Shown: piece by piece, positions 64 to 62,989 of the stretch
Numbering within the stretch: the stretch's first letter is position 1
Layout: each line of letters begins with the position of its first letter
Origin: Alphaproteobacteria bacterium
Lineage (GTDB): Bacteria > Pseudomonadota > Alphaproteobacteria > UBA7985
Length of the DNA: 64,000 bases
Assembly: GCA_965661545.1 (NCBI GenBank)
Contig: CBFIEF010000004.1
Coordinates: forward strand, 1,831-65,830
Direction of reading: 5' to 3'
Program-made: the position numbers and the translations under genes
The notes under the pieces: model-generated
Told to the model about the DNA's origin: nothing
Databases searched by the model: none
Seen by the model: only the letters and a program-made list of their open reading frames with translations

Positions 64-1458
64 ATGTCAGAATCCGCCCGCCTATCATCCCGAGCGCTCC
101 AACCCCTCACGCATCAACGCGTGTTCGCCGTCGCGATTCCGGCGTTTCTCAGTGGAATTACGGAGCCTCTGCTGTCTTTGGCAGATGTTGTGATCATGGG
201 CCAGCTTGAGACACAAGGACTTCAAGGCGGCGTAACAGCGGGCAGCGAGATTTTCGTTTTCACTCTTTGGACCCTCGGCTTCCTTCGGCTTTCCACCGGC
301 GGATATGCGGCTCAAGCCTTTGGTGAGCGAAACGAGCGCAAGCTGTTTGCCGTGCTGTGGCGCGGATTGTTGATCGCAGCCGTTGGCGGTGCTGTGATTG
401 CGGCCTTGGCGCCGCTGTTCTGGGGCCTGCTGAACAACTTGATGGGATGGCAGCCTGAACTGCGTCCCGCGTTGGAAGAATATCTGGGCGTCCGTGTTTG
501 GTCCGCACCGGCGGTGCTGTTCAGCTACGTGTGCTTTGGCTGGTTGATAGGGCAGCAGCGGACAGGTCTGGTACTGCTTCTGCAAGCGTTTATCAATCTC
601 TCCAACATTGGTGTCACATGGTGGCTGGTTTTGGGGCTGGATATGGGCGCTGGCGGCGCAGCGCTTGGCAGCGTGATTGCAAGTTACGCTGGCGTGGGGC
701 TGGGGCTGCTGATTTTGCTGATGCTGGGTTTGGCACGTCGGACGTCGTTACAAAGCCTGGAAGGGTTTTGGGAAGCCAAAATCTGGGTCACGCTATTCTC
801 TACTAATTCCAATTTCTTCCTGCGAAGTCTCGCCTTTGCCATCTCCTTCATGATCTTCTTCAAGGCAGCAGACTGGCTGGATCAATCTCAAGGGCTGGCC
901 GGCGTCAACGCCGATACTGTCGCCGTGCTGTGGCAGTATTTGGGGCTGATTGTCTTCGGCCTCGATGCCTTTGCCGTGGCTGCTGAGGCCTTTTCCGGAG
1001 AAGCGATTGGTGCGGGACGTCGGGAGCGCCTGCAAAGGGCGTCTCGCTTAGTGTTCTTTTGGGCCGGGATCAGCGCCATTGTCTGCGCCCTGCTGTCGCT
1101 GACAATCGGCTATTGGGCGTTGCCTTGGATCACGAAACTACCCGACGTGATCGCCCTATCGCGCGCGCTCATGCCCTATCTGGTCATCAGCGGCTTTATC
1201 ATGGCCCCAGCGTTTATGTTTGATGGCCTGTTTCTTGGTGGAACACGATCACTCGAAATGCGGAATTCAGTTCTGCTGGGTGGCGTGGCACAGATCCTGA
1301 CAACGGTCGCGCTGATGCCTTGGTTGGGCATTCATGGTCTGTGGTTGTCACTGGTGGCGTTCATGGTCGTGCGCGGGCTTTACCTGTACTGGCGCTATCC
1401 CGCCTTTGTCGCGTCCGTCCCACTGGCATCCTCAACCGACACAAATGCTAAGGCCTGA
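64..1458 (+). CDS. MATE family multidrug/oligosaccharide efflux transporter (DinF/NorM-like), 12-TM
   Basis: 464 aa hydrophobic ORF; N-terminal motif '…AIPAFLSGITEPLLSLADVVIMGQL…' typical of MATE transporters; 3' end overlaps convergent dusA by about 60 nt. Confidence 0.8.
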   Translation: MSESARLSSRALQPLTHQRVFAVAIPAFLSGITEPLLSLADVVIMGQLETQGLQGGVTAGSEIFVFTLWTLGFLRLSTGGYAAQAFGERNERKLFAVLWRGLLIAAVGGAVIAALAPLFWGLLNNLMGWQPELRPALEEYLGVRVWSAPAVLFSYVCFGWLIGQQRTGLVLLLQAFINLSNIGVTWWLVLGLDMGAGGAALGSVIASYAGVGLGLLILLMLGLARRTSLQSLEGFWEAKIWVTLFSTNSNFFLRSLAFAISFMIFFKAADWLDQSQGLAGVNADTVAVLWQYLGLIVFGLDAFAVAAEAFSGEAIGAGRRERLQRASRLVFFWAGISAIVCALLSLTIGYWALPWITKLPDVIALSRALMPYLVISGFIMAPAFMFDGLFLGGTRSLEMRNSVLLGGVAQILTTVALMPWLGIHGLWLSLVAFMVVRGLYLYWRYPAFVASVPLASSTDTNAKA

Positions 1459-2411
1459 CGCAACACATCCACACCAGCGGTCTTACTGGGCGCGTTTTCT
1501 GAGATGTAGCGCCGCCAGAGCCGCGCACCGGGCTGACTGTTGAACAGCCCCAAGATATGCCGCGTCATGGCATGCAGCGGGACGCCTTCCGAACGCTGCT
1601 CGTCAACGTAGGGCAAGAACGCCTCGATGACTTCATGACGCGTCTGCTGCGGTGCTTGATCGGTCGCGCCAAAGAGCCGCGCATCGACCTGCGATAACAT
1701 CCAAGGGTCTTGATAGGCCGCTCGGCCAACCATCACCGAATCCAGCCCAGCTGAGAGCAAATCAAGCGCTGTATCGAGGTCTTTCACACCACCATTGATG
1801 CCGATGTGCAAGTCAGGAAACTGCTGCTTCAGACGTTTGACGCGCTCATAATCCAGCGGGGGAATATCACGGTTTTCCTTGGGACTCAGGCCCTGCAACC
1901 ACGCCTTGCGTGCGTGCACAATAAACCGCTTACAGCCGCCAATCTCGCTAACCTGCCCGACAAAGTCAGTCAGCGCGGCTTCACTGTCTTGATCGTCAAT
2001 TCCGATACGGCATTTGACCGTCACAGGGATATCAACCGCCCCGATCATCGCTTGAACGTTTTCTGCGACCAAGCCCGGCTCAGCCATCAGGCAAGCCCCA
2101 AACGTCCCACGCTGCACGCGATCCGAAGGACAGCCAACGTTCATATTGATTTCGTCGTAACCCCAGTCCTGCCCCAACTTGGCCGAGGTCGCCATATCAG
2201 CAGGCTCCGAACCGCCTAGTTGCAGCGCCACGGGATGTTCAACAGCTGAGTAATCGAGGTGGCGCGGCACATCGCCGTGCAAGAGCGCGCCGGTGGTGAC
2301 CATTTCGGTATAAAGCAGGGCATGCTGGGTCAGCAGTCGATGGAAGACGCGGCAGTGCCGGTCCGTCCAATCCATCATCGGTGCTACACTGAAACGTGCC
2401 TGACTGGTCAT
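1395..2411 (-). CDS. dusA: tRNA-dihydrouridine(20/20a) synthase DusA
   Basis: Start taken at MTSQARFSVAPMMDWTDRHCR (ATG at 2411); TIM-barrel Dus motifs (…VAPMMDWTDRHCRVFHR…, …NVGCPS…) consistent with the DusA family. Confidence 0.85.
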   Translation of the reverse strand: MTSQARFSVAPMMDWTDRHCRVFHRLLTQHALLYTEMVTTGALLHGDVPRHLDYSAVEHPVALQLGGSEPADMATSAKLGQDWGYDEINMNVGCPSDRVQRGTFGACLMAEPGLVAENVQAMIGAVDIPVTVKCRIGIDDQDSEAALTDFVGQVSEIGGCKRFIVHARKAWLQGLSPKENRDIPPLDYERVKRLKQQFPDLHIGINGGVKDLDTALDLLSAGLDSVMVGRAAYQDPWMLSQVDARLFGATDQAPQQTRHEVIEAFLPYVDEQRSEGVPLHAMTRHILGLFNSQPGARLWRRYISENAPSKTAGVDVLRQALAFVSVEDASGTDATKAG

Positions 2412-2833
2412 AATGCTCACGGGTCGCAAGAGATTTTTGTTTCTGGAGCGCAACCTATCCCCGCTGCGGGCTGGCTGCAATCCTTAGGCAACCTCGCTGA
2501 CTGCAATCGGCCCGGATGCCTTGGTTTTAAGACCGAGACAGAACAATGATGGCCGGGTTGGTTTCGAATCGGGCAAGTGCGGGGAGGAATTGCAGGGTTT
2601 TTGGCGCAGCAATTATACGATAACCCGCACCGGCCCTTCGATATTCGTGTCTTGAGCGACCGCAGAAGTGCGATTTTCAGACACGGATGACCCGTAGGTC
2701 GACCTTTACGCCACCAACTCCGTTTATGTGGCTTAAAGAGCTGGCTTTCATGCACGCGTTGCAGGTGGACAAAGAGCGAGCCAGCCTCTAAACACGGCGT
2801 CTAATTCAAGAAGTCTCCAAAGGGAGCCCAGAA

Positions 2834-3571
2834 ATGGCACATAAAAAAGCAGGCGGTAGTTCGCGGAACGGTCGCGACTCAGAAAGTAAACGCCTCGGCG
2901 TAAAGCGCTACGGCGGCGAGCTGGTAACAGCTGGCAACATCATCGTGCGTCAGCGCGGTACGAAATTCCACCCAGGCACCAACATGGGCTTGGGCCGCGA
3001 TCACACCCTGTTCGCGCTTTCCGATGGTTACGTGAAGTTCCACGTAGGCCAGCGCGGTCGTTCTTTGGTGTCCGTCGTTGACGAGAACCCAAATACGCCA
3101 CCGTCCAGCAGCAAGAAAATTGGTGCGCCAACAGCTTCCGCAAAGGCAGCGGCAGCAGTAGCGGTTGCTTCTGCAGCAGTTTCCACGAAGGCTGAAGCGA
3201 AGAAAGCTGCACCAAAGGCTGAAAAGAAAGCCGCAGAGCCAAAGGCAGAAGCGAAGAAAGCTGAAGCCCCTAAGGCTGAAGAAAAGCCAAAGAAGGCTGC
3301 AGCAAAGAAAGAAAAGTTCGTCACGGACGCTCCAGCGCCGAAGAACCTGCTTTCCGAAGCGCCAGCTGACGTGGACGATCTGAAGAAAATCAAAGGCGTC
3401 GGACCAAAGTTCGAAGGTCTGCTGAACTCCTTCGGTATTTACCAGTACGCTCAGATGGCTGCTTTCTCTGCTAAAGACGTTGAGTGGCTTGCTGCTGAGC
3501 TTGGCTCCTTCCCTGATCGCATCGACCGCGATGAGTGGGTGAAGCAAGCGAAAGACCTCGCAAAGGGTTAA
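2834..3571 (+). CDS. rpmA: 50S ribosomal protein bL27 N-terminal domain fused to A/K/E-rich linker and C-terminal helix-hairpin-helix domain (245 aa)
   Basis: Residues 1-83 ([71 protein letters not shown]…) match canonical L27 almost residue for residue; then about 75 aa AKAAAAV…[25 protein letters not shown] low complexity; C-terminus '[31 protein letters not shown]…' has a GVGPK HhH signature; one uninterrupted frame; no rplU upstream. Confidence 0.8.
3118..3312 (+). repeat. imperfect in-frame tandem repeats encoding the (A/K/E/P)-rich linker
   Basis: 'gaagcgaagaaagctg' recurs at about 3193 and about 3249; repeated gct/gca/aag/gaa codon blocks. Confidence 0.5.
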
Positions 3572-3595: not shown

Positions 3596-3636
3596 AAAAA
3601 GGCCCGCTGGATATTCGATCCAGCGGGCCTTTTTCG
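3596..3636. terminator. bidirectional intrinsic terminator between the L27-fusion gene (+) and the aldehyde dehydrogenase gene (-)
   Basis: aaaaaGGCCCGCTGGAtattcgaTCCAGCGGGCCttttt: 11-bp perfect stem with 7-nt loop, A-tract 5' and T-tract 3'. Confidence 0.75.
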
Positions 3637-3655
3637 TGGCTTGAACTCTGGGCTG

Positions 3656-5107
3656 CTAATACGAGCCCTCAAACTTTGACAGGTCCATATACGTCGAGCG
3701 CACCTCGGTATAGCCCTCTAGTGCGAAGCGGCTGTTTTCACGGCCAAAGCCGCTTTGCTTCGACCCACCAAAGGGCATATCGGGCGGGCAAATGTTGTAG
3801 GTGTTGACCCAAACCGAACCGGACACCAGCTGGACCGCAACGCGGTGCGCGCGGGCGAGGTTGGTGGTCATCAATCCGGCACCCAAGCCAAAGAACGTAT
3901 CGTTCGCCCGGCGAACCGCCTCATCTTCATCATCAAAGACCAAGACCGACATCACGGGGCCAAAGATCTCCTCTCGCACAATCCGCATGTCATCCGTACA
4001 GCCAGAAAACACAGTTGGCTCAACGAAGTAGCCGTTCTCGAACCCTTGCGGAGAAACGCGGTTCCCCCCGGCCAAAAGGGTCGCCCCCTCGTTTTTGCCG
4101 ATTTCGATGTATTCCATAACCTTGTTCAGGTGTTCTTCGGAAATCAGCGCACCCATGTGGACCTCTGGATCCATGGGATCACCGACGCGAATAGTCGCCG
4201 TTCGGCGGGCGACTTCAGCCAGAAACTTATCGGCGATGGAGCGGTGTACGAACACGCGCGTCCCGTTCGAGCATACTTCACCCGACGTATAGAAGTTGGC
4301 CGAAAGCGCAACGCCAACGGCATCGTCAAGATCGGCATCTTCGAAGACAATCAACGGCGACTTTCCACCAAGCTCCAGCGTCACCTTCTTCAGCGTGTCC
4401 GCGGCCTGTTTGATGATGAGTTTACCTGTATCGATACCGCCGGTCAGTGAAACCTTGGCGATGCCCGGATGTTCACAGATCGCGCGACCAATGACATGAT
4501 CGCCCTGAACCACGCTAAACAAACCACTGGGCAAACCGGCCTCGTGCAGTGCATCAGCAACCTCATAGGCCGTAAGCGGCGTCTCCTCGGAGGGCTTGAG
4601 GATAAACGCGTTACCTGCGGCCAATGCCGGTGCAGCCTTCCAGCAGGCGATTTGAGTGGGATAATTCCACGCGCCAATACCAGCGCAAACGCCCAGCGGA
4701 ATGCGCTGTGTAAAGCCTACGGCGCCGGGATAGGTGTGATAGGTGCCGGGCATGTCTCGGGCGATACCGCCGAAGTATTCCAACGCGTCAGGACCAGAAG
4801 GGACATCGCCGCTTTCCGCTTCTGCGATGGCTTTGCCCACGTCTTGCACCTCAACTCGAGCCACCTGCTCGTTGCGGTCTTGAAGGATTTTCGCCGCCCG
4901 TAACAGGATCCGCCCGCGCTCGGTACCACTGGTCGCGGCCCATGCCTTTTGCGCCTCAGCAGCTTCAGCCACGATCTCGTCAAGCATGGCCGGTGAGGTT
5001 GGCTCGATGCGGGCGATGACTTCGCCAGTGGCTGGATAAATCTTGTCAAACGGCTCCATCCCGGAATGCCGTGGTTGTCCACCAACATAAGTGTGCTTCG
5101 TAATCAT
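3656..5107 (-). CDS. NAD(P)-dependent aldehyde dehydrogenase family protein (betaine-aldehyde dehydrogenase-like)
   Basis: 483 aa; ALDH superfamily motifs (…ELGGKSP…, …EEIFGPV…, catalytic Cys in …TSGEVCSNGTR…). Confidence 0.85.
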   Translation of the reverse strand: MITKHTYVGGQPRHSGMEPFDKIYPATGEVIARIEPTSPAMLDEIVAEAAEAQKAWAATSGTERGRILLRAAKILQDRNEQVARVEVQDVGKAIAEAESGDVPSGPDALEYFGGIARDMPGTYHTYPGAVGFTQRIPLGVCAGIGAWNYPTQIACWKAAPALAAGNAFILKPSEETPLTAYEVADALHEAGLPSGLFSVVQGDHVIGRAICEHPGIAKVSLTGGIDTGKLIIKQAADTLKKVTLELGGKSPLIVFEDADLDDAVGVALSANFYTSGEVCSNGTRVFVHRSIADKFLAEVARRTATIRVGDPMDPEVHMGALISEEHLNKVMEYIEIGKNEGATLLAGGNRVSPQGFENGYFVEPTVFSGCTDDMRIVREEIFGPVMSVLVFDDEDEAVRRANDTFFGLGAGLMTTNLARAHRVAVQLVSGSVWVNTYNICPPDMPFGGSKQSGFGRENSRFALEGYTEVRSTYMDLSKFEGSY

Positions 5108-5150
5108 GAAAAAACCGCCCTTCCGACTTTGTCTCAGAGGGGCGGTTTAG
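5108..5150 (-). terminator. intrinsic terminator for the minus-strand gene ending at 5180
   Basis: Minus-strand RNA: aaaCCGCCCctctgagacaaagtcggaaGGGCGGtttttt; it abuts the ALDH start codon. Confidence 0.6.
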
Positions 5151-5179
5151 CATTAGGTCAGAGCCAAAGACAGACGGTT

Positions 5180-5602
5180 TTACGGAACCCGCACAATCCG
5201 CCCAATCCCCCAGCCCAAGCCCAGCAGCACACCACCAAAAGCGGCAACTGTTACCGGCATTTGAAACAGCACGGGACGGACAACATTGAACCAAGGGTCC
5301 GTTGGGTTCGGCAGCCAGAAGAACAACTTTCGCTCAATCAGCACTTGGAACAAGTCCAGGCTGAAATTGTGGGCGAGGTACCAAATATCCATGATCTCCA
5401 GCGTGAGGGCTGTGATCGGGTTAGAGATGAAAATTCCAACCCCATAAGCCACAAGTGCAACGGCAAGGCTGGCAATGCCCACGATCCGCAGCCCCAGCGC
5501 AAGCCAACTCAGACCACGACGCACGATGATGTCGCGGCGGCTGAGTTTCGGTCCTTTGGCGCGGGGTTTTGACTTTGATGCAGGGCGCGATGCAGCGGCC
5601 AT
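5180..5602 (-). CDS. hypothetical small membrane protein (about 3 TM, basic N-terminus) downstream of msrP
   Basis: 140 aa, MAAASRPASKSKPRAKGPK… then hydrophobic segments; 12-nt gap after msrP; lacks the heme-ligand His pattern of MsrQ. Confidence 0.45.
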   Translation of the reverse strand: MAAASRPASKSKPRAKGPKLSRRDIIVRRGLSWLALGLRIVGIASLAVALVAYGVGIFISNPITALTLEIMDIWYLAHNFSLDLFQVLIERKLFFWLPNPTDPWFNVVRPVLFQMPVTVAAFGGVLLGLGWGIGRIVRVP

Positions 5603-5614
5603 GTCTCTGGTTCC

Positions 5615-6586
5615 TTAGAAGAAGACCGAACGGTCAGAATCGCGGCCTGCGTACAGGGATGCAACTTGGTTGGCGTAGCCGTTGTACAGCAGCGTTGGGA
5701 TCTGCTTGCCACCCTGCCCGATGTCACGTTCTTGCGCTTGGCTCCAGCGGCGGTGCGGGACATCTGGGTTTACGTTGGCAAAGAAGCCGTACTCAGACGG
5801 CCCGCTGGCCATCCAGAACGTCGTTGGCATTTCGGAAACAAAGTCGATCCGCGTGATGCCCTTGTTGTGCTTAAAGCCGTACTTCCACGGAACCGCCAAG
5901 CGCATGGGCGCGCCGTTCTGCTTGGGCAGCGGCTCGCCATACAGGCCGGTTACCATGAACGCGAGATCGTTGGTCGCTTCCTTGAGCTCTAAGCCCTCCA
6001 CATAGGGGAACGGCCAGCGGCTGCGGTACTGGTTACGCGCTTCTTCTGGACGATCGAAGGACGTGAGCACCACATACTTTGCATCTGAGGTTGGATCGGC
6101 CAGCCGCACTAACTCCTTGAGCGCAAAGCCGGACCACGGCACGACCATCGACCACGCTTCAACGCAGCGGTGACGGTAGATGCGCTCTTCAATCGGCATT
6201 TTTCGAACCAGCTCTTCGAAATCAAGCGTCATCGGGTTGTTCACCAAACCGCCAATTTCGACCGGCCACGGATCCGTCGTCAGCTTCTGCGCGTTTTTCG
6301 CAATCTTCTTCGACGTGCCGAATTCATAATAGTTGTTGTAGGTCGAAGCCGTCTTGAAATCTGTCAGAGGGCGATTGTTCAGCGTTGTGGCGTAGTTAGG
6401 GTTCCTGCGCGCAGGGTAGAGATCGCTGGTGTCACCAAGAGCCGGCATGGCGCCCGACAGCGCGAGGCCCGCACCGACAGAGCCGATGCCGAGGCCTTTT
6501 AGGATGGCGCGGCGGTTTTGGTACGTTGTTTGGTCAGTCGCTGCGCTCTCTGGCAGCCACCAGTCGGGCCGGATGATTGGCTTCAT
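5615..6586 (-). CDS. msrP: protein-methionine-sulfoxide reductase catalytic subunit MsrP (YedY, molybdopterin, Tat-secreted)
   Basis: Start at MKPIIRPDWW…; Tat-like 'RRAILKGLGIGSVGAGLAL'; sulfite-oxidase-family molybdopterin domain motifs. Confidence 0.85.
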   Translation of the reverse strand: MKPIIRPDWWLPESAATDQTTYQNRRAILKGLGIGSVGAGLALSGAMPALGDTSDLYPARRNPNYATTLNNRPLTDFKTASTYNNYYEFGTSKKIAKNAQKLTTDPWPVEIGGLVNNPMTLDFEELVRKMPIEERIYRHRCVEAWSMVVPWSGFALKELVRLADPTSDAKYVVLTSFDRPEEARNQYRSRWPFPYVEGLELKEATNDLAFMVTGLYGEPLPKQNGAPMRLAVPWKYGFKHNKGITRIDFVSEMPTTFWMASGPSEYGFFANVNPDVPHRRWSQAQERDIGQGGKQIPTLLYNGYANQVASLYAGRDSDRSVFF

Positions 6587-10854: not shown

Positions 10855-11163
10855 TCAGCCCATGCCAACAGCAGCCTTGTAGGTCTCGATCAGGGCTTCT
10901 TGCTCCTGCCGATCACCGGGCTCCATCTTCCGCAAACGCACAATGGCACGCATGATCTTTGGATCAAACCCAGCGCCCTTGGCTTCGCCGTAGACTTCTT
11001 TGATGTCTTCCATCATGCCGGCTTTCTCTTCTTCCAGCCGCTCAACACGCTCAATGTACTGAATCAGCGCTGCTGCCGCTGGCGTGCCCGTCGGAATGGC
11101 CTCGGGCTTAGCGACCGTATCGGCCATGATCTCATCAAGTTCGTTATCAAAGTCGTCGGACAT
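10855..11163 (-). CDS. gapR: GapR-like nucleoid-associated protein (DUF2312/UPF0335)
   Basis: 102 aa; '…IQYIERVERLEEEKAGMMEDIKEVYGEAKGAGFDPKIMRAIVRLRK…' closely matches Caulobacter GapR. Confidence 0.8.
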   Translation of the reverse strand: MSDDFDNELDEIMADTVAKPEAIPTGTPAAAALIQYIERVERLEEEKAGMMEDIKEVYGEAKGAGFDPKIMRAIVRLRKMEPGDRQEQEALIETYKAAVGMG

Positions 11164-23353: not shown

Positions 23354-26044
23354 ATGCATTCGATTTTAAATGCCAAAAGCGAATTTACGCCCAAAAAGCG
23401 TTCCCTTTTAAGAGCAGGACTTTACTCCGCTGTCGCTGGAAGTGCCTTCATTGGTAGCGAAGCACTCAGCCACACAGTTACGCTAAACGCTGACGGCTCG
23501 ACGGCAAGCGGTCCTTTATATGGAGGTGACTCCGGCACCTCTGTCCCGCACGTTCACCCAGGCTCTAATGCCGAAATCAGCAGCGCTAGCTTCAGCAGCA
23601 GCACGAGTGGTTTCAGCAACCTCGAAGCACTGCCCACCACACGGGGCAGCGCCGAGCCGGGCGTCGTGAACTTCATTGGTGAGCTTGAGCCAATTACACC
23701 AATTACTGAAGTGCAACGTTGGGCCTCTGGCCAGACTGCGTCGACTTCACCCATTTATTTCCCAACGCAGCAAACCCAAACGACCCAAGTGACCCTGCTC
23801 AATCCTGAGCAGCAGGTACAGATTGGTGACGTCGAAACCAGCGTTGAGACTAAGAACTTCCGCAACATTCAAACCGCTGTGGAAAGTACCGAAAAACTCG
23901 ACGACGGCAGTTTGTCTCTGACGTTGAAAAGCGGTGAACTCATGACCGCTGCGGCCGGCGACTACGCCTTTAACGGCGGCGATGTTTGGCTCGCATCCAA
24001 CATTGCGGGCGATCTTGGTACAATCACCGAAACAACCTCTGTGCTTTCTCGTATCTACGGCGTTGGCGGTGGTTGGGGTCTCCCCGTTGCAGAAGGCATT
24101 TTGGGCGTTAGCGCTCTGGGCCTGGGCGCAGCCGCGGCGACCGGTAACCTTTCCAACCCATTCGCTAACGATGGTGAAGACGGAGCTGATGGCGCAGACG
24201 GCGCCGATGGAGCTGACGGAGCAGACGGCTCCGGCGGCGATGGCGACGGCAGCAGTGACGGCGAAAGCGGTGATGGAACCGGCGATGGCTCAGATGACGG
24301 CACTGGCACGGGTGACGGCACAAGCGGCGAGGACGGCGAAGACGATTTCATCGACGACGGTAGCGATCCTGATTTTGAAGTGACCAACACTGATCCAGAG
24401 AACCTGGGCCCAACGGCCCTGACTTTCAGTCAGTTCAGCAACGCTAGCGGAAGTTTCGATCTCTTTGAAGCTGACAGCGCAGTTGGGGTACTGAGCGCAA
24501 GCGATCCGGAAAACGATGACCTGATGTACCGCATCGAGTCTCAACATCTTGGTTCTGAGATCACGAACATCTTCGAAATCAACGAAGATGGTCAGCTTAT
24601 CATTACCGAGCGGCTGGATTACAGCCAGCCCGGAAACGATGCAGATGGCACGCGGTTTGACCAGAACACAGCAACCGTTATGATTGAAGTTTCCGATGGA
24701 TCCGCACTGACAGACTTCCGTACTTTTGAGTTTACGATCAGCAACTCAACAGACGACGATGGTCCGTTAGAGTACGTTCGCGAAGCCAACATCACCCGTT
24801 TGAAGTTCAATGGCCTCAACAGCACCAGCTCCGGCGCCGCTGACAGTACCGACTGGCTCCCATTCATGGACGAGGCCGAATACCACCACAATTTGGATGG
24901 TGGCCAGGACATGATCGCGTCTTTCCACTCCGAAACCGAACATGCCTTCTCCGTTCACGAATTAACGGGCACGGGCGGTTTCTCGAACACACAAAACTAT
25001 TCGACCAACAGCACCGAGATTGATGCTGAGTACCGCATTCATGAGGTTCGGGCGCTCGACATGGATGACATTGACGGCGATGGCTACACTGACATCGTTG
25101 TTGCTGGCAGCGGCGGCACCAACGGTACGGACTCTGTGGTGCAGATTTGGGAAGTGGGTAAGTCAGGTGAATTCACCTTTAAGGCCGCAGACAAGGATTC
25201 TGAACCTTCACAGGTAGAAGACGTCGTGATTGGCCATTTTAATTCAAACAATGCGTCCAAAGAAACCTCCGCAACAAACATGAAAAAGGTCATGGTTATC
25301 GGCGGCGGAAACGACGACACCGCAGCCGAAGATGCCTTGTATTCGGTTTACTACGACGATCTTGAATATGCCTTCAACTCGGAGCAGCTCCAGGGCGGAT
25401 GGAACTTTGGCGAAGTTGAGAGCATCATGATTAACGACACTGAATACGCTGTTGGTACGTACGGCACCAACGGTGGTGACGGTATCAGCATGGTATTCTT
25501 GGGCGAGGGTGACTCGCAGGACGGCATCGTGAGCGCAGGCACGGGCATTAGCCACAACGACGTTGCGGTCATTGGCAACGTCGTGTTCACGGCGACCGAT
25601 AAGGGCGTTTACTACAGCAAGGCCTTCCACTCTGGCCTCGATGCCCCTGAAGCGCTGTCGATCACCAATGAAGGCCTGCACATCGCGGATATCAAAGCGA
25701 GCCAGATTGAGGCGGGTAACTTTGACGGGGATGATGATCTGGAGCTAGCGGTCCTCGACGTTCTGGATCAGACGCCGATCATTCGCTTCTTCGATGTCGA
25801 CTTGACCAACCCACAGGTTGTCACCCAGATGTTCGTCTCTGAGCCTGTTCCAGGTGCTGTTGAGCTGCAAGTGATCCCGAGTTCGATCGAATTGGCTGAT
25901 CGCGATGATGGTAACATCGATGCGGACGAGCTGCTGGTTGGTATAAACGAAGCCGGTACGGCGTCTTACCTCAATAGTGACGGTGAGAGCATTTCACAGA
26001 CGTGGAACGGCTCTATCATCTTCTATGATGATACGTCCCTCTAG
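23354..26044 (+). CDS. large surface/secreted adhesin-like protein with acidic (GAD)n tract, cadherin-like domain and FG-GAP/VCBS repeats
   Basis: 896 aa; cadherin-like '…ASDPENDDLMYRIESQ…INEDGQLIITERLDYSQ…'; FG-GAP 'DMDDIDGDGYTDIVVAGSGG', 'GNFDGDDDLELAVLD'; preceded by a 450-bp AT-rich leader. Confidence 0.75.
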   Translation: MHSILNAKSEFTPKKRSLLRAGLYSAVAGSAFIGSEALSHTVTLNADGSTASGPLYGGDSGTSVPHVHPGSNAEISSASFSSSTSGFSNLEALPTTRGSAEPGVVNFIGELEPITPITEVQRWASGQTASTSPIYFPTQQTQTTQVTLLNPEQQVQIGDVETSVETKNFRNIQTAVESTEKLDDGSLSLTLKSGELMTAAAGDYAFNGGDVWLASNIAGDLGTITETTSVLSRIYGVGGGWGLPVAEGILGVSALGLGAAAATGNLSNPFANDGEDGADGADGADGADGADGSGGDGDGSSDGESGDGTGDGSDDGTGTGDGTSGEDGEDDFIDDGSDPDFEVTNTDPENLGPTALTFSQFSNASGSFDLFEADSAVGVLSASDPENDDLMYRIESQHLGSEITNIFEINEDGQLIITERLDYSQPGNDADGTRFDQNTATVMIEVSDGSALTDFRTFEFTISNSTDDDGPLEYVREANITRLKFNGLNSTSSGAADSTDWLPFMDEAEYHHNLDGGQDMIASFHSETEHAFSVHELTGTGGFSNTQNYSTNSTEIDAEYRIHEVRALDMDDIDGDGYTDIVVAGSGGTNGTDSVVQIWEVGKSGEFTFKAADKDSEPSQVEDVVIGHFNSNNASKETSATNMKKVMVIGGGNDDTAAEDALYSVYYDDLEYAFNSEQLQGGWNFGEVESIMINDTEYAVGTYGTNGGDGISMVFLGEGDSQDGIVSAGTGISHNDVAVIGNVVFTATDKGVYYSKAFHSGLDAPEALSITNEGLHIADIKASQIEAGNFDGDDDLELAVLDVLDQTPIIRFFDVDLTNPQVVTQMFVSEPVPGAVELQVIPSSIELADRDDGNIDADELLVGINEAGTASYLNSDGESISQTWNGSIIFYDDTSL
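24182..24350 (+). repeat. in-frame 9-bp tandem repeats (GGNGCNGAY)n encoding GADGADGADGADGADG followed by a degenerate G/D/S/T-rich tract
   Basis: ggagctgat ggcgcagac ggcgccgat ggagctgac ggagcagac … seen directly. Confidence 0.7.
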
Positions 26045-41446: not shown

Positions 41447-43741
41447 TTAGAACGGCAGAGGAATCTCCAGGCCATTGATGTTGAGCGCCTCACCCGCAGG
41501 AATATCGATCACAAACTCCAGCGCACCGTCATCGGTCGGCGTGCCAAACATCGACGCGCCAAACAAGCCCTCAAGCACTTGCTCGATTGTTTGCGCAGTG
41601 CCAGGGAAGGCATCAACTTCGCCACTTTCAATCGCCATCATCAACTCGATAAGGTGCGCCTGCGCTTCCGCGACGCCCAACATCGTCATCGTGATCGAGC
41701 CAACCGAGTAATTCGGCGGCAACATTGGATTGATGGCCACGGTCCCGGACGCTGTCGCCTCAACCTTGCCGCCACTGATGTACGAGGGCTGCACAACCAA
41801 CGAAGGCGGGGACGCCAAAATCGGAGAAATCAGCGCCGCGCCGGCCAGCAACAGCGATGACGGATCAAAATCCGGGTCTAGCATTGTGTCCACCGGCGGC
41901 AGCGGAACATTGCCCGCGATGGCCAAAATCATCGCCATGGGAATATCCGCAAGTTCGATCGTAAGACCTGCGTCCGTCGGTAAGAACCCCGGCTTGTCGC
42001 TACCGAGCACCAACTCGACCAGCACAGGATCAGCCACCTCGTCTTCGATCTCAGCCTGAAGGCCTGCGAATGATACGTGTTGCCGGATTTTAGCCTGATC
42101 GGTCAGCATATCGTGTGTTGTAAAGCTGATATCGGCAGCAGCTAAAGCCCCAGAAATCTCGCCCGTGTCAGCCGCAGTATTGGCGTAGAAAGACGCGTCT
42201 TTCAAACCCACCCTCAAGCTGGGTAAGTAGCTGCTGAGTGCAAACCGAAGCGCGTCAGCCAGCGTGAGATCATCGTTCTCCAAGCCCAGCACAATCTCCG
42301 TGATGCTGGTCAAGCTGTCGCGGATACTGTAGCCGGCGGAAAGCTCACCAAACGAGAAACCAATTTCCTCTGGCAATTCAACGTTAAACCCCAAGAGCCG
42401 CGCTGTCAGATCCTGCACGTCGCTGTCTGGTTCAAAGTTAAAGCTGGTCCCCAGCTCAGCGCCTGACATCGAAACTCTCAGCCGTTCGTCATCGCTCTCT
42501 GGCAGTTCAAGGCTCGCACCATCGAGCCTCAGCGCAAAATCACTGGCCGTGAGAACATCCGCACTCCATGCCAGTATCTTCCCACCAACACTCAGGTACA
42601 TGTCGATCAACACATCTTCGGGCTGGTAGAAATCTTCAGCCTCCATCATCCGCACTTGCGCAGACAGATCGGCGAGTGCGTCCGCTAGGGGGTCTAAGCC
42701 ATAGTCCGGTGTATAGGTGGTGCTGCCAGACAGCGATCCACCTTGCATATCCAAGAGACTGAATTCTCCGCCCGCACCAGACCAGTGGTCATAAACAATC
42801 AGCTGCAACTGCCCCAGCATGCCGGTCGTACTGGCTATTTTCGCTGCGTGGTCATAGGCCGTTTCAATCGAAAGGCCATCGAATTCCAGTCGTCCGTCAA
42901 AGTCCAGCAAGTCCACATCGTTCAAGGATAACTTGCCCATCTCAATGCTAGAATTGAGATCCTGCAATTCAGTGTCAAACAGGGGAATAAACCGGTCAAT
43001 CAGGTTTGCCGCGGCGTCCGCTGGCGAGGTGATTCCGGCTTCAAACATCGCGAACTGCTTGAAACCTTCATTGATTTCACGCTGCAAAAACCAATCTGGC
43101 GTGTTCACTGTTTCAAAGGAAAACCCAAAGCTCTCAAGGGATCCAATCTTTGCCCCATCAATCGCGGCAGAGAGGTCCATAATCGTAAAGTCAGCTCCAC
43201 TAAGCGGGTTCTGTTTCCGCTCATCAAAGAGGAAGTTGAGCGCGCCAACCTTTACATAATTTGCTTCTTCTGCGCCTGACTCTGCGAACAGCAAATCCTG
43301 AATGGTGAGTTCAAACCGTTCGGTCGCCTGCGCCTCCGGGTTGATGGTCATGCTGAGCTGAAACTCGGCAACTTCGAATGTTGTCCCTAATTCTGGGAGA
43401 AGTTCGATCAGCAGCTGTGCGAGATCCGTTGTCAGATTCAAGGAACCGTTTTCTGCTTCCGTGGCCTCAAAGGACAGATCACCCAGCGGCAACCCGTCGA
43501 TATTGGCGTCGGCCATCACCACGTCGAAAGCAGCCCCATCTCCGTCACCGTCTAACACCGTGAGCGTTTCATATTCGATGGGCAGCCCAAACAACAGAGG
43601 AACGGGCAGATCCTCCATGGACGTTAAAACCGTCGCGACTTGCGCCGCGGTCATGGTTTGAGACTGGGCTTGCGTGGCAAACGACGTCCCAAAAGCGGCG
43701 ATACACATCAACGCTTTAAGGTGTTGGAATGGCTTTTTCAT
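41447..43741 (-). CDS. large secreted acidic hypothetical protein (paralog A; possibly DUF2125-like)
   Basis: 764 aa; signal peptide MKKPFQHLKALMCIAAFGTSFATQAQS; Leu/Asp/Glu/Gly-rich; C-terminal '…LEFVIDIPAGEALNINGLEIPLPF' resembles the C-terminus of the downstream paralog. Confidence 0.6.
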   Translation of the reverse strand: MKKPFQHLKALMCIAAFGTSFATQAQSQTMTAAQVATVLTSMEDLPVPLLFGLPIEYETLTVLDGDGDGAAFDVVMADANIDGLPLGDLSFEATEAENGSLNLTTDLAQLLIELLPELGTTFEVAEFQLSMTINPEAQATERFELTIQDLLFAESGAEEANYVKVGALNFLFDERKQNPLSGADFTIMDLSAAIDGAKIGSLESFGFSFETVNTPDWFLQREINEGFKQFAMFEAGITSPADAAANLIDRFIPLFDTELQDLNSSIEMGKLSLNDVDLLDFDGRLEFDGLSIETAYDHAAKIASTTGMLGQLQLIVYDHWSGAGGEFSLLDMQGGSLSGSTTYTPDYGLDPLADALADLSAQVRMMEAEDFYQPEDVLIDMYLSVGGKILAWSADVLTASDFALRLDGASLELPESDDERLRVSMSGAELGTSFNFEPDSDVQDLTARLLGFNVELPEEIGFSFGELSAGYSIRDSLTSITEIVLGLENDDLTLADALRFALSSYLPSLRVGLKDASFYANTAADTGEISGALAAADISFTTHDMLTDQAKIRQHVSFAGLQAEIEDEVADPVLVELVLGSDKPGFLPTDAGLTIELADIPMAMILAIAGNVPLPPVDTMLDPDFDPSSLLLAGAALISPILASPPSLVVQPSYISGGKVEATASGTVAINPMLPPNYSVGSITMTMLGVAEAQAHLIELMMAIESGEVDAFPGTAQTIEQVLEGLFGASMFGTPTDDGALEFVIDIPAGEALNINGLEIPLPF

Positions 43742-43848: not shown

Positions 43849-45693
43849 TCAGCGCTGATTGAGCGGTGCGCCGTTGAGGTTTATCTCACCGAACTGTGTC
43901 AGCTCGAGCACGTACGTCTGCTCGTCTGCATTTGAAGCTGTGCCAAGATCGCGCAACCGCTCGGCCCATCCGGCGATGCGGCGGCCATAGTCTGCTAGAC
44001 CCTGCGCGTCCTCACCACCACTGGTCAAAGCGGCCTCTGTGGTTGTATCGGCGCGGCGCTCTACTTTGGTCAGGCCCTTCACACTCGCGGTGAAACTGCC
44101 AAAACCGAACAACGGCGGAATGGGCATGACCTGATGTTCACCAACGATGGTCATGGTGTAGTCATCGGCCACGACCTGGGCGTCTGTGACGCTGACACGA
44201 GGGGGCTGGATCAGGAACGGCGTGACCATACCCAGCGCACCGCCGACCAGCGAGCGGGCGAGAACACTGGGTTCGTTCACTGATCCGGCGCGTGGCAAGC
44301 TTTCCAACGTTTGACGCAGGTTCGCCATTGGCAAGCCGGTGACTTCAACGGTGCCTTCAAATTCGTTGGGAACCAGACTTTGTGACAGGGGGTCAAATCG
44401 GATCAGACGACCGCCCAAAGCCGGGACGATGCTGGGGATCACAATCGGCTCTGGCTCAACACCCTTTGGCGATTCCATTGCGCGCAAATCGATACCGTTT
44501 GCTTGGCCACGCAAGGTGATGAATCCGCCATCAATCCGCATGTCCGTCAAACCCAAGGCGCCCTGTGCCTGCTCCATCGACAAGGAGAATAGGCGGTCCG
44601 GCAGCGCAAAGACCAAGTCTTCCGCCATCCCCTCGAAACCAATGGTATCAAAGAAAAGCAGTGTATCGGCCAAAACAGACCAATTCGCACCAGCCTCAGC
44701 TGGTTTAAACAGCGAACCAAGTGCCAACGCGAAGCCTTCGACATCAGCGCCATTCAGATCAATGTTCAGCGCGCCGCGCTTCATCCCGGCAAAGTCTTCG
44801 CGGCGGCGGATATCCAAACCATCGAACACGATGTTGACCATCTGGGTTTTAAGGGCGTCGCCCTGTGACGACGCAGGCAAAGAGAAACCGTCGAGTGCGA
44901 CTTCAAGATCCTGCGGGCCATAGAATGCGTTTAGGCCTGTGACCTGTAAATCGGTAAACGATGAAGCCGCCGGCAGATAGAGGTTTTCAAGGTGAACCAG
45001 AGTGGCGCCCAGCAGGCTGTCATTCCCCTCATTTCTTGCGTCGAGAAACCGGAAATCAAACGAGCGTCCGAGACTGGCATAGGGCGCACCCGCCGCGCTG
45101 CCTGTCCAGCGCCCATCGTAAATGATGTTCTCTATCGCAAAGGCGTAACTGGTGTCTGGGTCGCCTTCTTCCGCTGGCTTTGCGCCGCCGGAACCAGTCA
45201 GGTTTGACAGGCGCAGCGAATAGCCACTTTCATCTGCGCGCATGACCACTTCACCCGCACCCAGCCGAAGACCATTGGGCGCGGCAAGCGCTAAATCGGT
45301 GATGCGATATTCGAGCCGTTGATACCCTTTAATCGCATCGTTCCATTCGCCCGCAAAGTCCCACTGTGCTGCTTGCACGCCGGATCCGTCAGGGTTGGTG
45401 ACGCGCGTCGGCATTTCAATGCTTTTCACGTCGAAAATACTGTCGCCCAAGGCGCGAATATCGATGCTCACCAACCCCACGGGAACAGAGCCGTAGCTTG
45501 CGTCTTTCAGCGAGACGGTGTTGCTGCGCACAAACACGTCCTCAGCATCAAATGCCAACGGACCAAAGAGGCCGAAGTTGTGCCCTAACTCGGACCGAAC
45601 AACCTGCTCCACGCTTTGCGCTGAAACGCTTGAAACAGTAACCAGTGTGATGAACGATGCGGCGGCAAGTTTGCCAAGGCGAGAAAGGAACAA
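43849..45693 (-). CDS. large secreted hypothetical protein (paralog B; possibly DUF2125-like)
   Basis: 614 aa; signal peptide MFLSRLGKLAAASFITLVTVSSVSAQS; C-terminal '…YVLELTQFGEINLNGAPLNQR' similar to paralog A. Confidence 0.6.
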   Translation of the reverse strand: MFLSRLGKLAAASFITLVTVSSVSAQSVEQVVRSELGHNFGLFGPLAFDAEDVFVRSNTVSLKDASYGSVPVGLVSIDIRALGDSIFDVKSIEMPTRVTNPDGSGVQAAQWDFAGEWNDAIKGYQRLEYRITDLALAAPNGLRLGAGEVVMRADESGYSLRLSNLTGSGGAKPAEEGDPDTSYAFAIENIIYDGRWTGSAAGAPYASLGRSFDFRFLDARNEGNDSLLGATLVHLENLYLPAASSFTDLQVTGLNAFYGPQDLEVALDGFSLPASSQGDALKTQMVNIVFDGLDIRRREDFAGMKRGALNIDLNGADVEGFALALGSLFKPAEAGANWSVLADTLLFFDTIGFEGMAEDLVFALPDRLFSLSMEQAQGALGLTDMRIDGGFITLRGQANGIDLRAMESPKGVEPEPIVIPSIVPALGGRLIRFDPLSQSLVPNEFEGTVEVTGLPMANLRQTLESLPRAGSVNEPSVLARSLVGGALGMVTPFLIQPPRVSVTDAQVVADDYTMTIVGEHQVMPIPPLFGFGSFTASVKGLTKVERRADTTTEAALTSGGEDAQGLADYGRRIAGWAERLRDLGTASNADEQTYVLELTQFGEINLNGAPLNQR

Positions 45694-61139: not shown

Positions 61140-62816
61140 TTAGCTGCGGCTGTTCTTGAGCGCTTCGCCCAGAATGTCGCCCAAGGATGCGCCGGAATCA
61201 GTGGAACCGTACTCGGCCATTGCCTCCTGTTCTTCCTCGGTTTCACGTGCCTTAATGGACAGAGAGATCTTGCGTGTCTTGGAGTCGATGGCGGTAATCT
61301 TCGCATCCACCTTCTCGCCAACTGCAAAACGATCGGTCCGCTGGTCATCACGGTCACGTGCCAGATCAGAACGACGGATGAAGCCCGTCACACCGTCAGT
61401 CACCTGAACCTCAATACCATTGTCCTGAACCTGCGTAATCACGGTGGTAACCACCTGACCGCGCTTCAGGCCGTCTATTGCGTTTGCAAACGGATCGTCT
61501 TCGAGCTGCTTGATGCCCAAAGAGATACGCTCTTTCTCAACATCAACGTCGAGGACCTTGGCCGATACAGACTCGCCCTTGGTGTAATCCTTGACAGCTT
61601 CTTCGCCAACGCGGTTCCAGTCGATGTCCGACAAGTGAACCATGCCGTCGATGTCGCCTTCGAGGCCAACGAACAGACCGAATTCGGTGATGTTGCGAAT
61701 TTCGCCTTCGATGGAAGAGCCAACAGGGTTGCTGTCCAAGAACGCTTCCCATGGGTTCTGCATGGTCTGCTTGAGACCAAGGGAAATGCGACGCTTCGAG
61801 GTATCCACATCGAGGATGACAACTTCAACTTCTTGCGAAGTGGAAACGATCTTACCCGGGTGTACGTTCTTCTTTGTCCATGACATCTCGGAAACGTGCA
61901 CCAGACCTTCGATGCCCGGCAGCAATTCAACAAATGCACCATAATCGGTGATGTTGGTAACGCGGCCGTTGAACTTCGTACCAACTGGGAACTCAGCCGC
62001 AACCGTTTCCCAAGGATCGGTTTCGAGCTGCTTCATGCCCAGCGAGATACGCTGTGTTTCGCGGTTGAACTTGATCACCTGAACTTCGACGGACTGACCA
62101 ACAGTCAGAACCTCGGACGGGTGATTGATGCGGCGCCACGAAATGTCGGTGACGTGCAACAGGCCGTCTACACCGCCCAGATCAACGAATGCACCGTAAT
62201 CGGTGATGTTCTTAACAACACCCTGCAGTACGCTACCCTCTTCGAGGTTCTGGATAAGCTCCTGACGCTGTTCAGCGCGCGCTTCTTCCAGAACGGCACG
62301 ACGAGAAACAACGATGTTGCCGCGCGCCTTGTCCATCTTCAGAATCTGGAATGGCTGCGCATTGTTCATCAGAGGAGCGACATCGCGCACGGGGCGGATA
62401 TCAACCTGTGAACCGGGCAAGAACGCTACTGCACCACCCAGGTCGACTGTAAAGCCACCCTTGACGCGGTTGAAGATAACGCCTTCCACGCGAACGCCGT
62501 CGTTGAACTTCTTTTCCAGCTCAACCCAAGCTTCTTCGCGGCGCGCCTTGTCACGAGACAGCATAACTTCGCCGTCTTTGTTCTCATAGCGCTCCACGAA
62601 CACTTCTACGGTGTCGCCGGCTTTGATGGTCGGCTCTTGGCCGGGCATCGTGAATTCTTTAAGGGGTACGCGACCTTCAGATTTGAGGCCAACATCGATG
62701 ATCACCAGATCATTTTCGATGTTCAATACGGTACCGGAGAGGACGGACCCTTCGAGGGTGTCGCCCATTGTTTCGTTGAGGAGATCCGCGAAGGACTCCA
62801 TGGCGGCTTCTGCCAT
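61140..62816 (-). CDS. rpsA: 30S ribosomal protein S1
   Basis: Six S1 domains; start taken at [17 protein letters not shown] (alternative start 62801); rpsA-cmk-aroA gene order. Confidence 0.95.
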
Positions 62817-62989
62817 TCTGTTAGATTTCCTGTAAATGATATCCAACCCGAGGGCTGGACTTTGGCGCGGCCCTGCGAACAGGATCACCCCAAGGGTTTG
62901 GGTTTCAGTTGAAATCCGGACGTGCCACGGATCAGCAAAAAGCTTCTCCAATCGACCCATCCGGCCTCAGATTTTCGCAAACCGAGGTA

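Follow-up and report, generated by a model that had tools for sequence, protein, structure and literature searches.

Long forms of ribosomal proteins L21 and S2 in Alphaproteobacteria, represented by NCBIfam models NF008915 and NF008916 (PRK12278) and NF008966 (PRK12311), respectively, end in a linker rich in Ala, Lys, Glu and Pro that is followed by a helix-hairpin-helix (HhH) core of ~65 aa. In these systems it is L21 or S2 and not L27 that carries the module, and their rpmA gene is short and adjacent to rplU. A module of this kind, set on a similarly long and flexible linker, is also found in long NuoE (NF009040, PRK12373) and in the RC-LH1 component Urf1/protein-O/protein-3h (PDB 9WQV, 8YY9, 8YZ2), where the hosts are membrane or respiratory proteins. 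The authors of the protein-O structure noted that its C-terminal domain is also present on NuoE and other proteins, called its function ‘obscure’ and did not resolve it in their map (PMC12079452). In Rhodovulum sulfidophilum, cleavage of Urf1 inside the linker yields the mature protein-3h, which thus is without the module (PMC13066640). Caulobacter crescentus PhaH (NF045508) is organised in the same manner, with an N-terminal ‘cargo’ domain, a linker and a homologous HhH C-terminus. To our knowledge, it is the only member of the family with a tested function. According to an account of Salinas et al. 2023 (PMC13052382), the N-terminus of PhaH binds PHB granules while the C-terminal HhH domain binds DNA non-specifically, and the protein distributes PHB granules along the nucleoid. 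The C-terminal extension of Cereibacter CrtA is possibly analogous to the module.

The linker and HhH module

The locus described here encodes a bL27 protein with a C-terminal tail of this type. It lies in a stretch of 64,000 nucleotides, referred to below as the window, to which all coordinates refer. When the 65-aa core of the tail was compared with NCBIfam models, the best match was to long NuoE (NF009040, E=2e-23), followed by long L21 (NF008915 and NF008916, E=6e-17 and 7e-15, respectively), long S2 (NF008966, E=1e-13) and, as the weakest of the five, phasin PhaH (NF045508, E=4e-10). All five matches align to the last about 65 positions of the model, that is, to the extreme C-terminus. 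A PDB search with the domain only returned R. sulfidophilum Urf1 (9WQV) and Dinoroseobacter shibae protein-O (8YY9, 8YZ2) at E about 1e-18, with 54–56% identity over the core; together with long NuoE, these proteins are the closest sequence relatives of the window tail. The layout is the same as well, a long, disordered, low-complexity linker being followed by the core at the extreme C-terminus.

The domain is abundant. While a word-indexed search that used only this domain as query yielded 6 short fragments, the exhaustive HMMER search that was used instead found the domain in 11,709 representative clusters. It often occurs in tandem, with up to 25 copies in one protein of 3,033 aa. The five NCBIfam models listed above were matched by all 86 sampled representatives, and Pfam HHH_5 by 67 of the 86, with others matching further HhH-clan models. 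Judged by its sequence, the tail of the window protein is thus a member of a large, promiscuous family of ‘flexible linker + HhH’ modules. NCBIfam contains no model for the L27 form of the fusion, and a literature search on L21 and L27 carrying HhH domains or extended C-termini found no paper that describes the module on either protein.

The tailed bL27 gene and its product

The host can be placed from the isoleucyl-tRNA synthetase encoded in the window, which is 88% identical to that of an ‘Alphaproteobacteria bacterium’ MAG and 61–65% identical to those of Kiloniellaceae/Pelagibius, Nisaea and Azospirillum; by this comparison, it belongs to the uncultured marine Alphaproteobacteria and is related to Kiloniellales/Rhodospirillales. 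GapR, a nucleoid protein of Alphaproteobacteria, is also encoded in the window. The bL27 gene is an intact ORF at 2834–3571 on the + strand that begins with ATG and encodes a product of 245 aa in three parts: bL27 (residues 1–83), a disordered linker (~84–161) and a five-helix (HhH)2-type domain (~162–245). The features of the locus are as follows:

2766–2794, + strand: putative sigma-70-type promoter with -35 TGGACA (2766–2771), a 17-nt spacer and -10 TAAACA (2789–2794), read from the sequence and located inside a conserved block of ~97 bp
2822–2826, + strand: Shine-Dalgarno sequence GGGAG, spaced 7 nt from the start codon, read from the sequence and conserved in the relative L007
2834–3082, + strand: bL27 domain, residues 1–83, from Pfam PF01016, TIGR00062 and a pLDDT of about 90
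3083–3316, + strand: disordered linker rich in Ala, Lys, Glu and Pro, residues 84–161, from pLDDT and composition
3212–3293, + strand: imperfect tandem DNA repeat within the linker, period about 30 nt, 3 copies (Tandem Repeats Finder score 74, 69% matches)
3317–3568, + strand: five-helix (HhH)2-type domain, residues 162–245, its core running from a 12-residue stretch to W235
3569–3571, + strand: stop codon TAA, read from the sequence
3597–3637, no strand assigned: intrinsic-terminator hairpin with a 16-bp stem, an A-run before and a U-run after it, from RNA folding

The first part of the protein is an ordinary bL27. Pfam PF01016 (Ribosomal_L27) matches residues 2–81 with E=7e-39 and 132.1 bits (cut-off 20.5), covering model positions 1–79 of 79, and TIGR00062 matches residues 1–82 with 130.5 bits (cut-off 90.35), covering positions 1–83 of 83. 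The N-terminal tail of bL27 (AHKKxxGS...NGRDS) reaches the peptidyl-transferase centre. Identity of the window domain to E. coli L27 is 72% over 85 aa, the 15-residue N-terminal tail included, and all 55 aligned fusions share M1, A2, H3, K4, K5, G8, S9, N12, G13 and R14. The L27 domain has a dN/dS of 0.047 between the window and L007, and within the close clade its identity is 95–100% as compared to 49–62% for the HhH core. These values argue for strong purifying selection on the L27 domain. Codon usage, taken as a test for high expression, gave only a weak shift against a reference set of two genes.

In the predicted structure residues 89–161 have pLDDT below 50. Residues 84–175 consist of 30% Ala, 22% Lys, 11% Glu and 11% Pro and have a net charge of +9. 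An initial, sequence-only reading of the locus described this segment as histone-H1-like, a label that does not carry over to the family: among the homologues linker length is 51–104 aa (n=54), with the frame kept in all, and net charge ranges from -18 to +13 with a median of +2 (55 fusions). A consistently basic Lys/Ala/Pro tail of the histone-H1-like or AKP-repeat type is thus not what we find, the window linker itself combining its charge of +9 with 11% Glu. DNA-binding tails of the AKP-repeat type, such as those of PhaM, PhaF and AlgP, are basic, whereas the linkers of the L27 fusions have no conserved basic character.

The C-terminal ~85 residues, when modelled alone, form five helices (pLDDT 92.9, pTM 0.82), and this architecture together with a G-x-G hairpin is that of an (HhH)2 domain. 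D182, L183, G188, G190, G201 and W235 are invariant. The window domain itself falls just short of Pfam HHH (23.7 bits against a cut-off of 24) and further short of HHH_5 (21.9 against 27), while its L27-HhH homologues P0081, P0073 and P0017 pass HHH_5 with 28.7–32.1 bits; at the superfamily level, the C-terminus agrees with HhH models. With a dN/dS of 0.17 against L007, and 0.11–0.30 overall, the HhH domain is also constrained. Its net charge is -2 in the window, and it is mildly acidic in nearly all fusions, with a median of -3. The anatomy originally proposed, a bL27 fused via a low-complexity linker to an HhH-type domain, is confirmed.

Upstream, the dus gene starts at 2411, leaving a gap of 422 bp to rpmA. 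What had been taken for a leader of 350 bp is mostly the relic of an M10 peptidase gene (~220 bp at 2509–2730; 31% identity over 74 aa, two in-frame stops, E=0.002), followed by ~97 bp of promoter-proximal sequence that is 86% identical to L007; the M10 peptidase gene is intact at the same position in L007. The promoter read in this block is plausible, but putative: a consensus scan for sigma-70 promoters and terminators, which accepts only -10 hexamers ending in T, called no promoter and also missed the terminator. The terminator hairpin is very stable, with -37.4 kcal/mol and z=-6.4, and none of 200 shuffled sequences folded as stably. It lies between the bL27 gene and a convergent aldehyde-dehydrogenase ORF, which ends at 3656 on the minus strand, and is probably bidirectional. 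As the hairpin follows the stop codon, the tailed L27 gene is monocistronic. The conserved promoter-proximal block, the strong Shine-Dalgarno sequence and the strong terminator all support a functional rpmA. A structured autoregulatory leader RNA was considered but is not supported: Rfam gave no match at gathering thresholds anywhere in the 64-kb window, the upstream sequence is conserved only in close relatives, and ~220 bp of it is the gene relic.

What the tail may do

With moderate confidence, we interpret the gene as a functional, monocistronic rpmA whose bL27 product enters the 50S subunit and whose tail most likely tethers 50S subunits or ribosomes to the nucleoid through non-specific DNA binding. 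The canonical bL27 part would be incorporated into the 50S, and the C-terminus would act as a disordered tether of ~80 aa bearing the (HhH)2-type domain of ~85 aa. The domain belongs to a family that is appended to parts of large assemblies (L21, S2, NuoE, Urf1/protein-O and PhaH) and, as in PhaH, would bind DNA non-specifically, so that ribosomes or their 50S subunits are loosely held at the nucleoid. By analogy, nucleoid tethering via DNA binding is the best-supported reading and our leading hypothesis. The cargo differs, however: it is a PHB granule in PhaH and a ribosome in the case of the tailed bL27, where DNA binding is proposed by analogy only. What we infer, as distinct from observe, is that the protein enters ribosomes, that the genome has no other L27, and what the module binds and does.

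An indication of where such a tail would leave the ribosome is provided by the chloroplast. In the large subunit of the spinach chloroplast ribosome, the C-terminal extension of bL27c emerges at the solvent side close to PSRP6 and the H38 protrusion; bL21c is in turn contacted by PSRP6 (PMC5071890). Similarly to the window protein, bL27c is a C-terminally extended L27, although the extension is short, not of the HhH type and not homologous to the module. By this placement, the tail would project from the solvent side of the 50S near the base of the central protuberance, and an L21 tail would leave from the same neighbourhood, which would explain why the module is found on L21 or L27 and not on both. 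The chloroplast chains are the only solved L27s with a C-terminal extension in the PDB. A PDB profile search with the full alignment returned ordinary L27 chains only, and in solved bacterial ribosomes the length of L27 does not exceed about 96 aa; together with the weak codon-usage signal, this weakens the proposed explanation.

Several properties of the tail itself also count against a nucleoid tether. The HhH domain is mildly acidic and the charge of the linker is not conserved, which leaves nucleic-acid binding plausible but not assured, and the module is also present on membrane complexes, for which a link to the nucleoid is not so evident. In addition, the closest folds include protein-binding ones. 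The best structural matches of the HhH domain are the acidic-repeat (AR) domains of NusA, although the likeness of AR1 and AR2 is at the level of the (HhH)2 fold, sequence identity to the window domain being only 15–17%. The NusA AR domains bind proteins, namely the RNA polymerase alpha-CTD and lambda N, and not DNA. It is therefore possible, albeit on balance doubtful, that bL27 is functional and the module is a protein docking or clustering domain, acting as NusA AR does on the alpha-CTD or through SAM-type self-association; ribosomes would thereby be joined to one another, to RNA polymerase or to another scaffold. The RAD51 N-terminal domain and the HhH domains of Pol X and Y-family polymerases are similarly close in fold to the window domain, however, and the G-x-G hairpin with its flanking lysines, typical of DNA-binding HhH motifs, is conserved in the alignment. 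Furthermore, PhaH is reported to bind DNA via this very domain (account in PMC13052382).

Gene neighbourhood, spread and status of the fusion

The absence of rplU upstream of the gene, pointed out in the sequence-only reading, holds for the whole 64-kb window, in which neither rplU nor obg is present. At the loci examined in the close clade of the window, rplU is likewise not found beside the tailed gene. In both the window and its 67%-identity relative P0030 (locus L007) dus and MatE are located upstream; the downstream aldehyde-dehydrogenase gene is kept in L006 but not in L007, and the P0065 locus has a different gene context. P0068 is located just upstream of rpoB, and P0073 between rplJL and rpoBC. 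The situation is different in distant fusions on long contigs, Lewinellaceae (a 3.9-Mb contig) and Anaerolineae among them, where the tailed L27 gene directly follows a plain rplU in 5 of the 5 sampled, with a gap of 10–50 nt. Detachment of rpmA from rplU is thus particular to the clade of the window. The arrangements at the loci examined were as follows:

Plain L21 then plain L27: 74 loci
L21 + module then plain L27: 6 loci
Plain L21 then L27 + module: 3 loci, or 6 with three further fusions
L27 + module with no L21 nearby: 12 loci
Module on both L21 and L27: 0 loci

Among these loci the module is therefore carried by L21 in 6, by L27 in 15 and by both in 0 of 21. Loci with L21 + module followed by plain L27 come from Hyphomicrobiales-type, Citromicrobium and Granulosicoccaceae MAGs.

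These arrangements bear on whether the tailed protein could be an extra L27 paralogue, with a canonical rplU-rpmA pair elsewhere in the genome and the tailed copy being accessory, moonlighting or reserved for specialised ribosomes. The fact that in the clade of the window the gene is never beside rplU and its context is variable is in line with this proposal, as are related Rhodospirillales-type genomes that have a plain, adjacent rplU-rpmA pair. An accessory copy would, however, be expected to diverge more than an L27 domain that is near-consensus, evolves at the low dN/dS given above and remains nearly identical throughout the clade. In other phyla, moreover, the tailed gene itself sits in the rplU-rpmA operon: occupation of the canonical slot in all five distant fusions indicates that a fused L27 can be the housekeeping L27, and in these five the tailed gene is evidently the housekeeping rpmA. 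The relatives adjoining rplJL and/or rpoBC, P0073 and P0068, also support a functional rpmA. On the basis of the window and the loci compared here, we therefore consider a paralogue unlikely. The rplU-adjacent distant fusions, combined with the much higher conservation of the L27 domain than of the HhH core, make us lean towards a functional ribosomal L27 in the window.

It could also be that the linker is cleaved after translation or assembly, yielding a mature L27 of normal size, with the module serving transiently in targeting or assembly or being released. The cleavage of R. sulfidophilum Urf1 in the equivalent linker, with the N-terminal part alone present in the mature LH1-RC (PMC13066640), is a precedent and also weakens the tether as best explanation; the tail of D. 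shibae protein-O is similarly invisible or lost (PMC12079452), and a long, disordered linker is accessible to proteases. At the same time, the linker contains no conserved cleavage motif, its sequence and length vary freely, the Urf1 result is explainable by loss during purification, and PhaH, as described in PMC13052382, works as an intact two-domain tether. Taken together, we regard a removable tail as rather improbable. That the fusion is an artefact, a frameshift, lost stop or chimeric join connecting rpmA to an unrelated HhH gene, can be dismissed: the linker DNA is repetitive, which can be error-prone, and nothing else was found to speak for it, while at least 23 contigs, which derive from independent samples and different assemblers, carry an identical 245-aa ORF, more than 100 clusters share the architecture with linker length varying in frame, and both flanking domains are under purifying selection.

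These at least 23 contigs come from independent marine metagenome assemblies (TARA and others), and on all of them the neighbours are dus and the aldehyde-dehydrogenase gene; accordingly, there is no frameshift or stop between the L27 and HhH domains. The more than 100 clusters of the same architecture were recovered by a homologue search at ~100% query coverage and 38–100% identity, and come from several phyla. Some are annotated in public databases, NCBI included, as ‘50S ribosomal protein L27’, for example in Anaerolineae, Lewinellaceae and Limisphaerales MAGs, where the proteins have the same three-part architecture at 38–50% overall identity to the window protein. The fusion is thus not the rarity that it was first taken for, nor is the appendage unusual in kind, the module being known from L21, S2, NuoE, PhaH and Urf1/protein-O. 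The HhH cores of the distant L27 fusions are 42–52% identical to that of the window, below the alphaproteobacterial Urf1. This greater proximity of the window core to Urf1 suggests that the distant L27-HhH fusions arose independently or within their own lineages.

The finding is best filed as an architecture that is already present, uncharacterised, in public databases, with L27 as a further host in a type of fusion known before. Directly supported by observation are the intact gene, its architecture, the homology of its domains, the recurrence of the fusion, purifying selection and the detachment from rplU; what is particular to the window is this detachment of rpmA combined with a tail close to the Rhodobacterales Urf1 and NuoE modules. 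In practical terms, the window has modest value: L27 joins the known hosts of the module, the gene serves as a clean example equipped with a putative promoter and a terminator of its own, and in its clade rpmA has moved out of the rplU operon.

The domain content of bacterial ribosomal proteins is generally regarded as fixed. Against this background, it is of interest that in many lineages bL27 carries a conserved and folded additional domain, apparently interchangeable with one on L21. Were the module a docking or clustering domain, it would represent an unrecognised way of organising large complexes. If it tethers ribosomes to the nucleoid or the transcription machinery, it would bear on the spatial organisation of translation outside E. 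coli and on its coupling to transcription. More speculatively, and in our view doubtfully so far, the module could be a general ‘nucleoid-anchoring tag’ for large, abundant machines, namely ribosomes (via L21, L27 or S2), complex I, RC-LH1 and PHB granules. In the case of bL27, 50S subunits or ribosomes engaged in translation would be held at chromosomal DNA or at RNA polymerase, and the alternation between L21 and L27 would reflect a single exit point on the 50S. If real, such a tag would physically connect translation with the nucleoid as an inherent feature of these bacteria.

The dus–rpmA interval and neighbouring genes

In the long intergenic region between dus and tailed rpmA (the gene encoding bL27 with a disordered linker and a C-terminal HhH domain), the 3′ end of a peptidase gene of the M10/serralysin type survives as a decayed relic. 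At the equivalent position of L007, the locus of a 67%-identity relative, the peptidase gene is intact (3977–5890, 637 aa).

Features around tailed rpmA
64–1458, plus strand: MatE gene, convergent with dus
1395–2411, minus strand: dus, convergent with the MatE gene
2509–2730, plus strand: peptidase relic (31% identity over 74 aa, E=0.002, two in-frame stops)
10855–11163, minus strand: gene for the nucleoid-associated protein GapR (NF052541, NF010247)

The 3′ ends of the MatE gene and dus overlap by 64 bp (window 1395–1458), and this overlap is kept in related loci. The GapR gene, which adjoins the DUF1244 and DUF1178 genes and is separated from tailed rpmA by about 7 kb, marks the host as an alphaproteobacterium.

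A different context is found in one sub-clade, comprising loci L011 and L012 (protein P0073), L095 (P0068) and L094 (P0071): here, the rplJ–rplL pair on the minus strand is followed by tailed rpmA and then by rpoB–rpoC on the plus strand, with a fatty-acid desaturase gene sometimes intervening in the same interval. This placement of tailed rpmA is an unusual break in the rplKAJL–rpoBC cluster, which is normally co-directional.

Other open reading frames in the window

Elsewhere in the window, alignments of all S1 models to the rpsA product begin only at residue ~45–53; either the true start lies downstream or S1 carries an N-terminal extension of ~45 aa. Three large ORFs have no NCBIfam match at E≤1e-10.

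Further ORFs
61140–62960, minus strand: rpsA (S1), 605 aa, matching S1 models
23354–26044, plus strand: 896 aa, no such NCBIfam match
41447–43741, minus strand: 763 aa, no such NCBIfam match
43849–45693, minus strand: 613 aa, no such NCBIfam match

The HhH domain on other proteins

The same ~70-aa HhH domain is present in 8–25 tandem copies in giant proteins of 1,300–3,100 aa (P0127–P0133), and other representatives combine 3–4 HhH copies with coiled-coil regions (matches to Pfam Filament, crescentin-rod and SMC-like models). The NF009401 model (PRK12766, 50S ribosomal protein L32e) is also matched by 10 of the 86 sampled proteins that bear the module, that is, the linker plus HhH domain. The model represents a haloarchaeal L32e with an HhH region; this would be a possible counterpart, in archaea, of the fusions between ribosomal proteins and HhH domains.

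Placement of the module on L21 or L27

At six loci (L019, L028, L033, L050, L066 and L088) the module is on L21 and a plain L27 is next; at L008–L010 and L096–L098 it is on L27, preceded by a plain L21. None of the loci examined carries the module on both proteins. This either-or placement suggests that the L21 and L27 positions of the module are functionally equivalent on the 50S.
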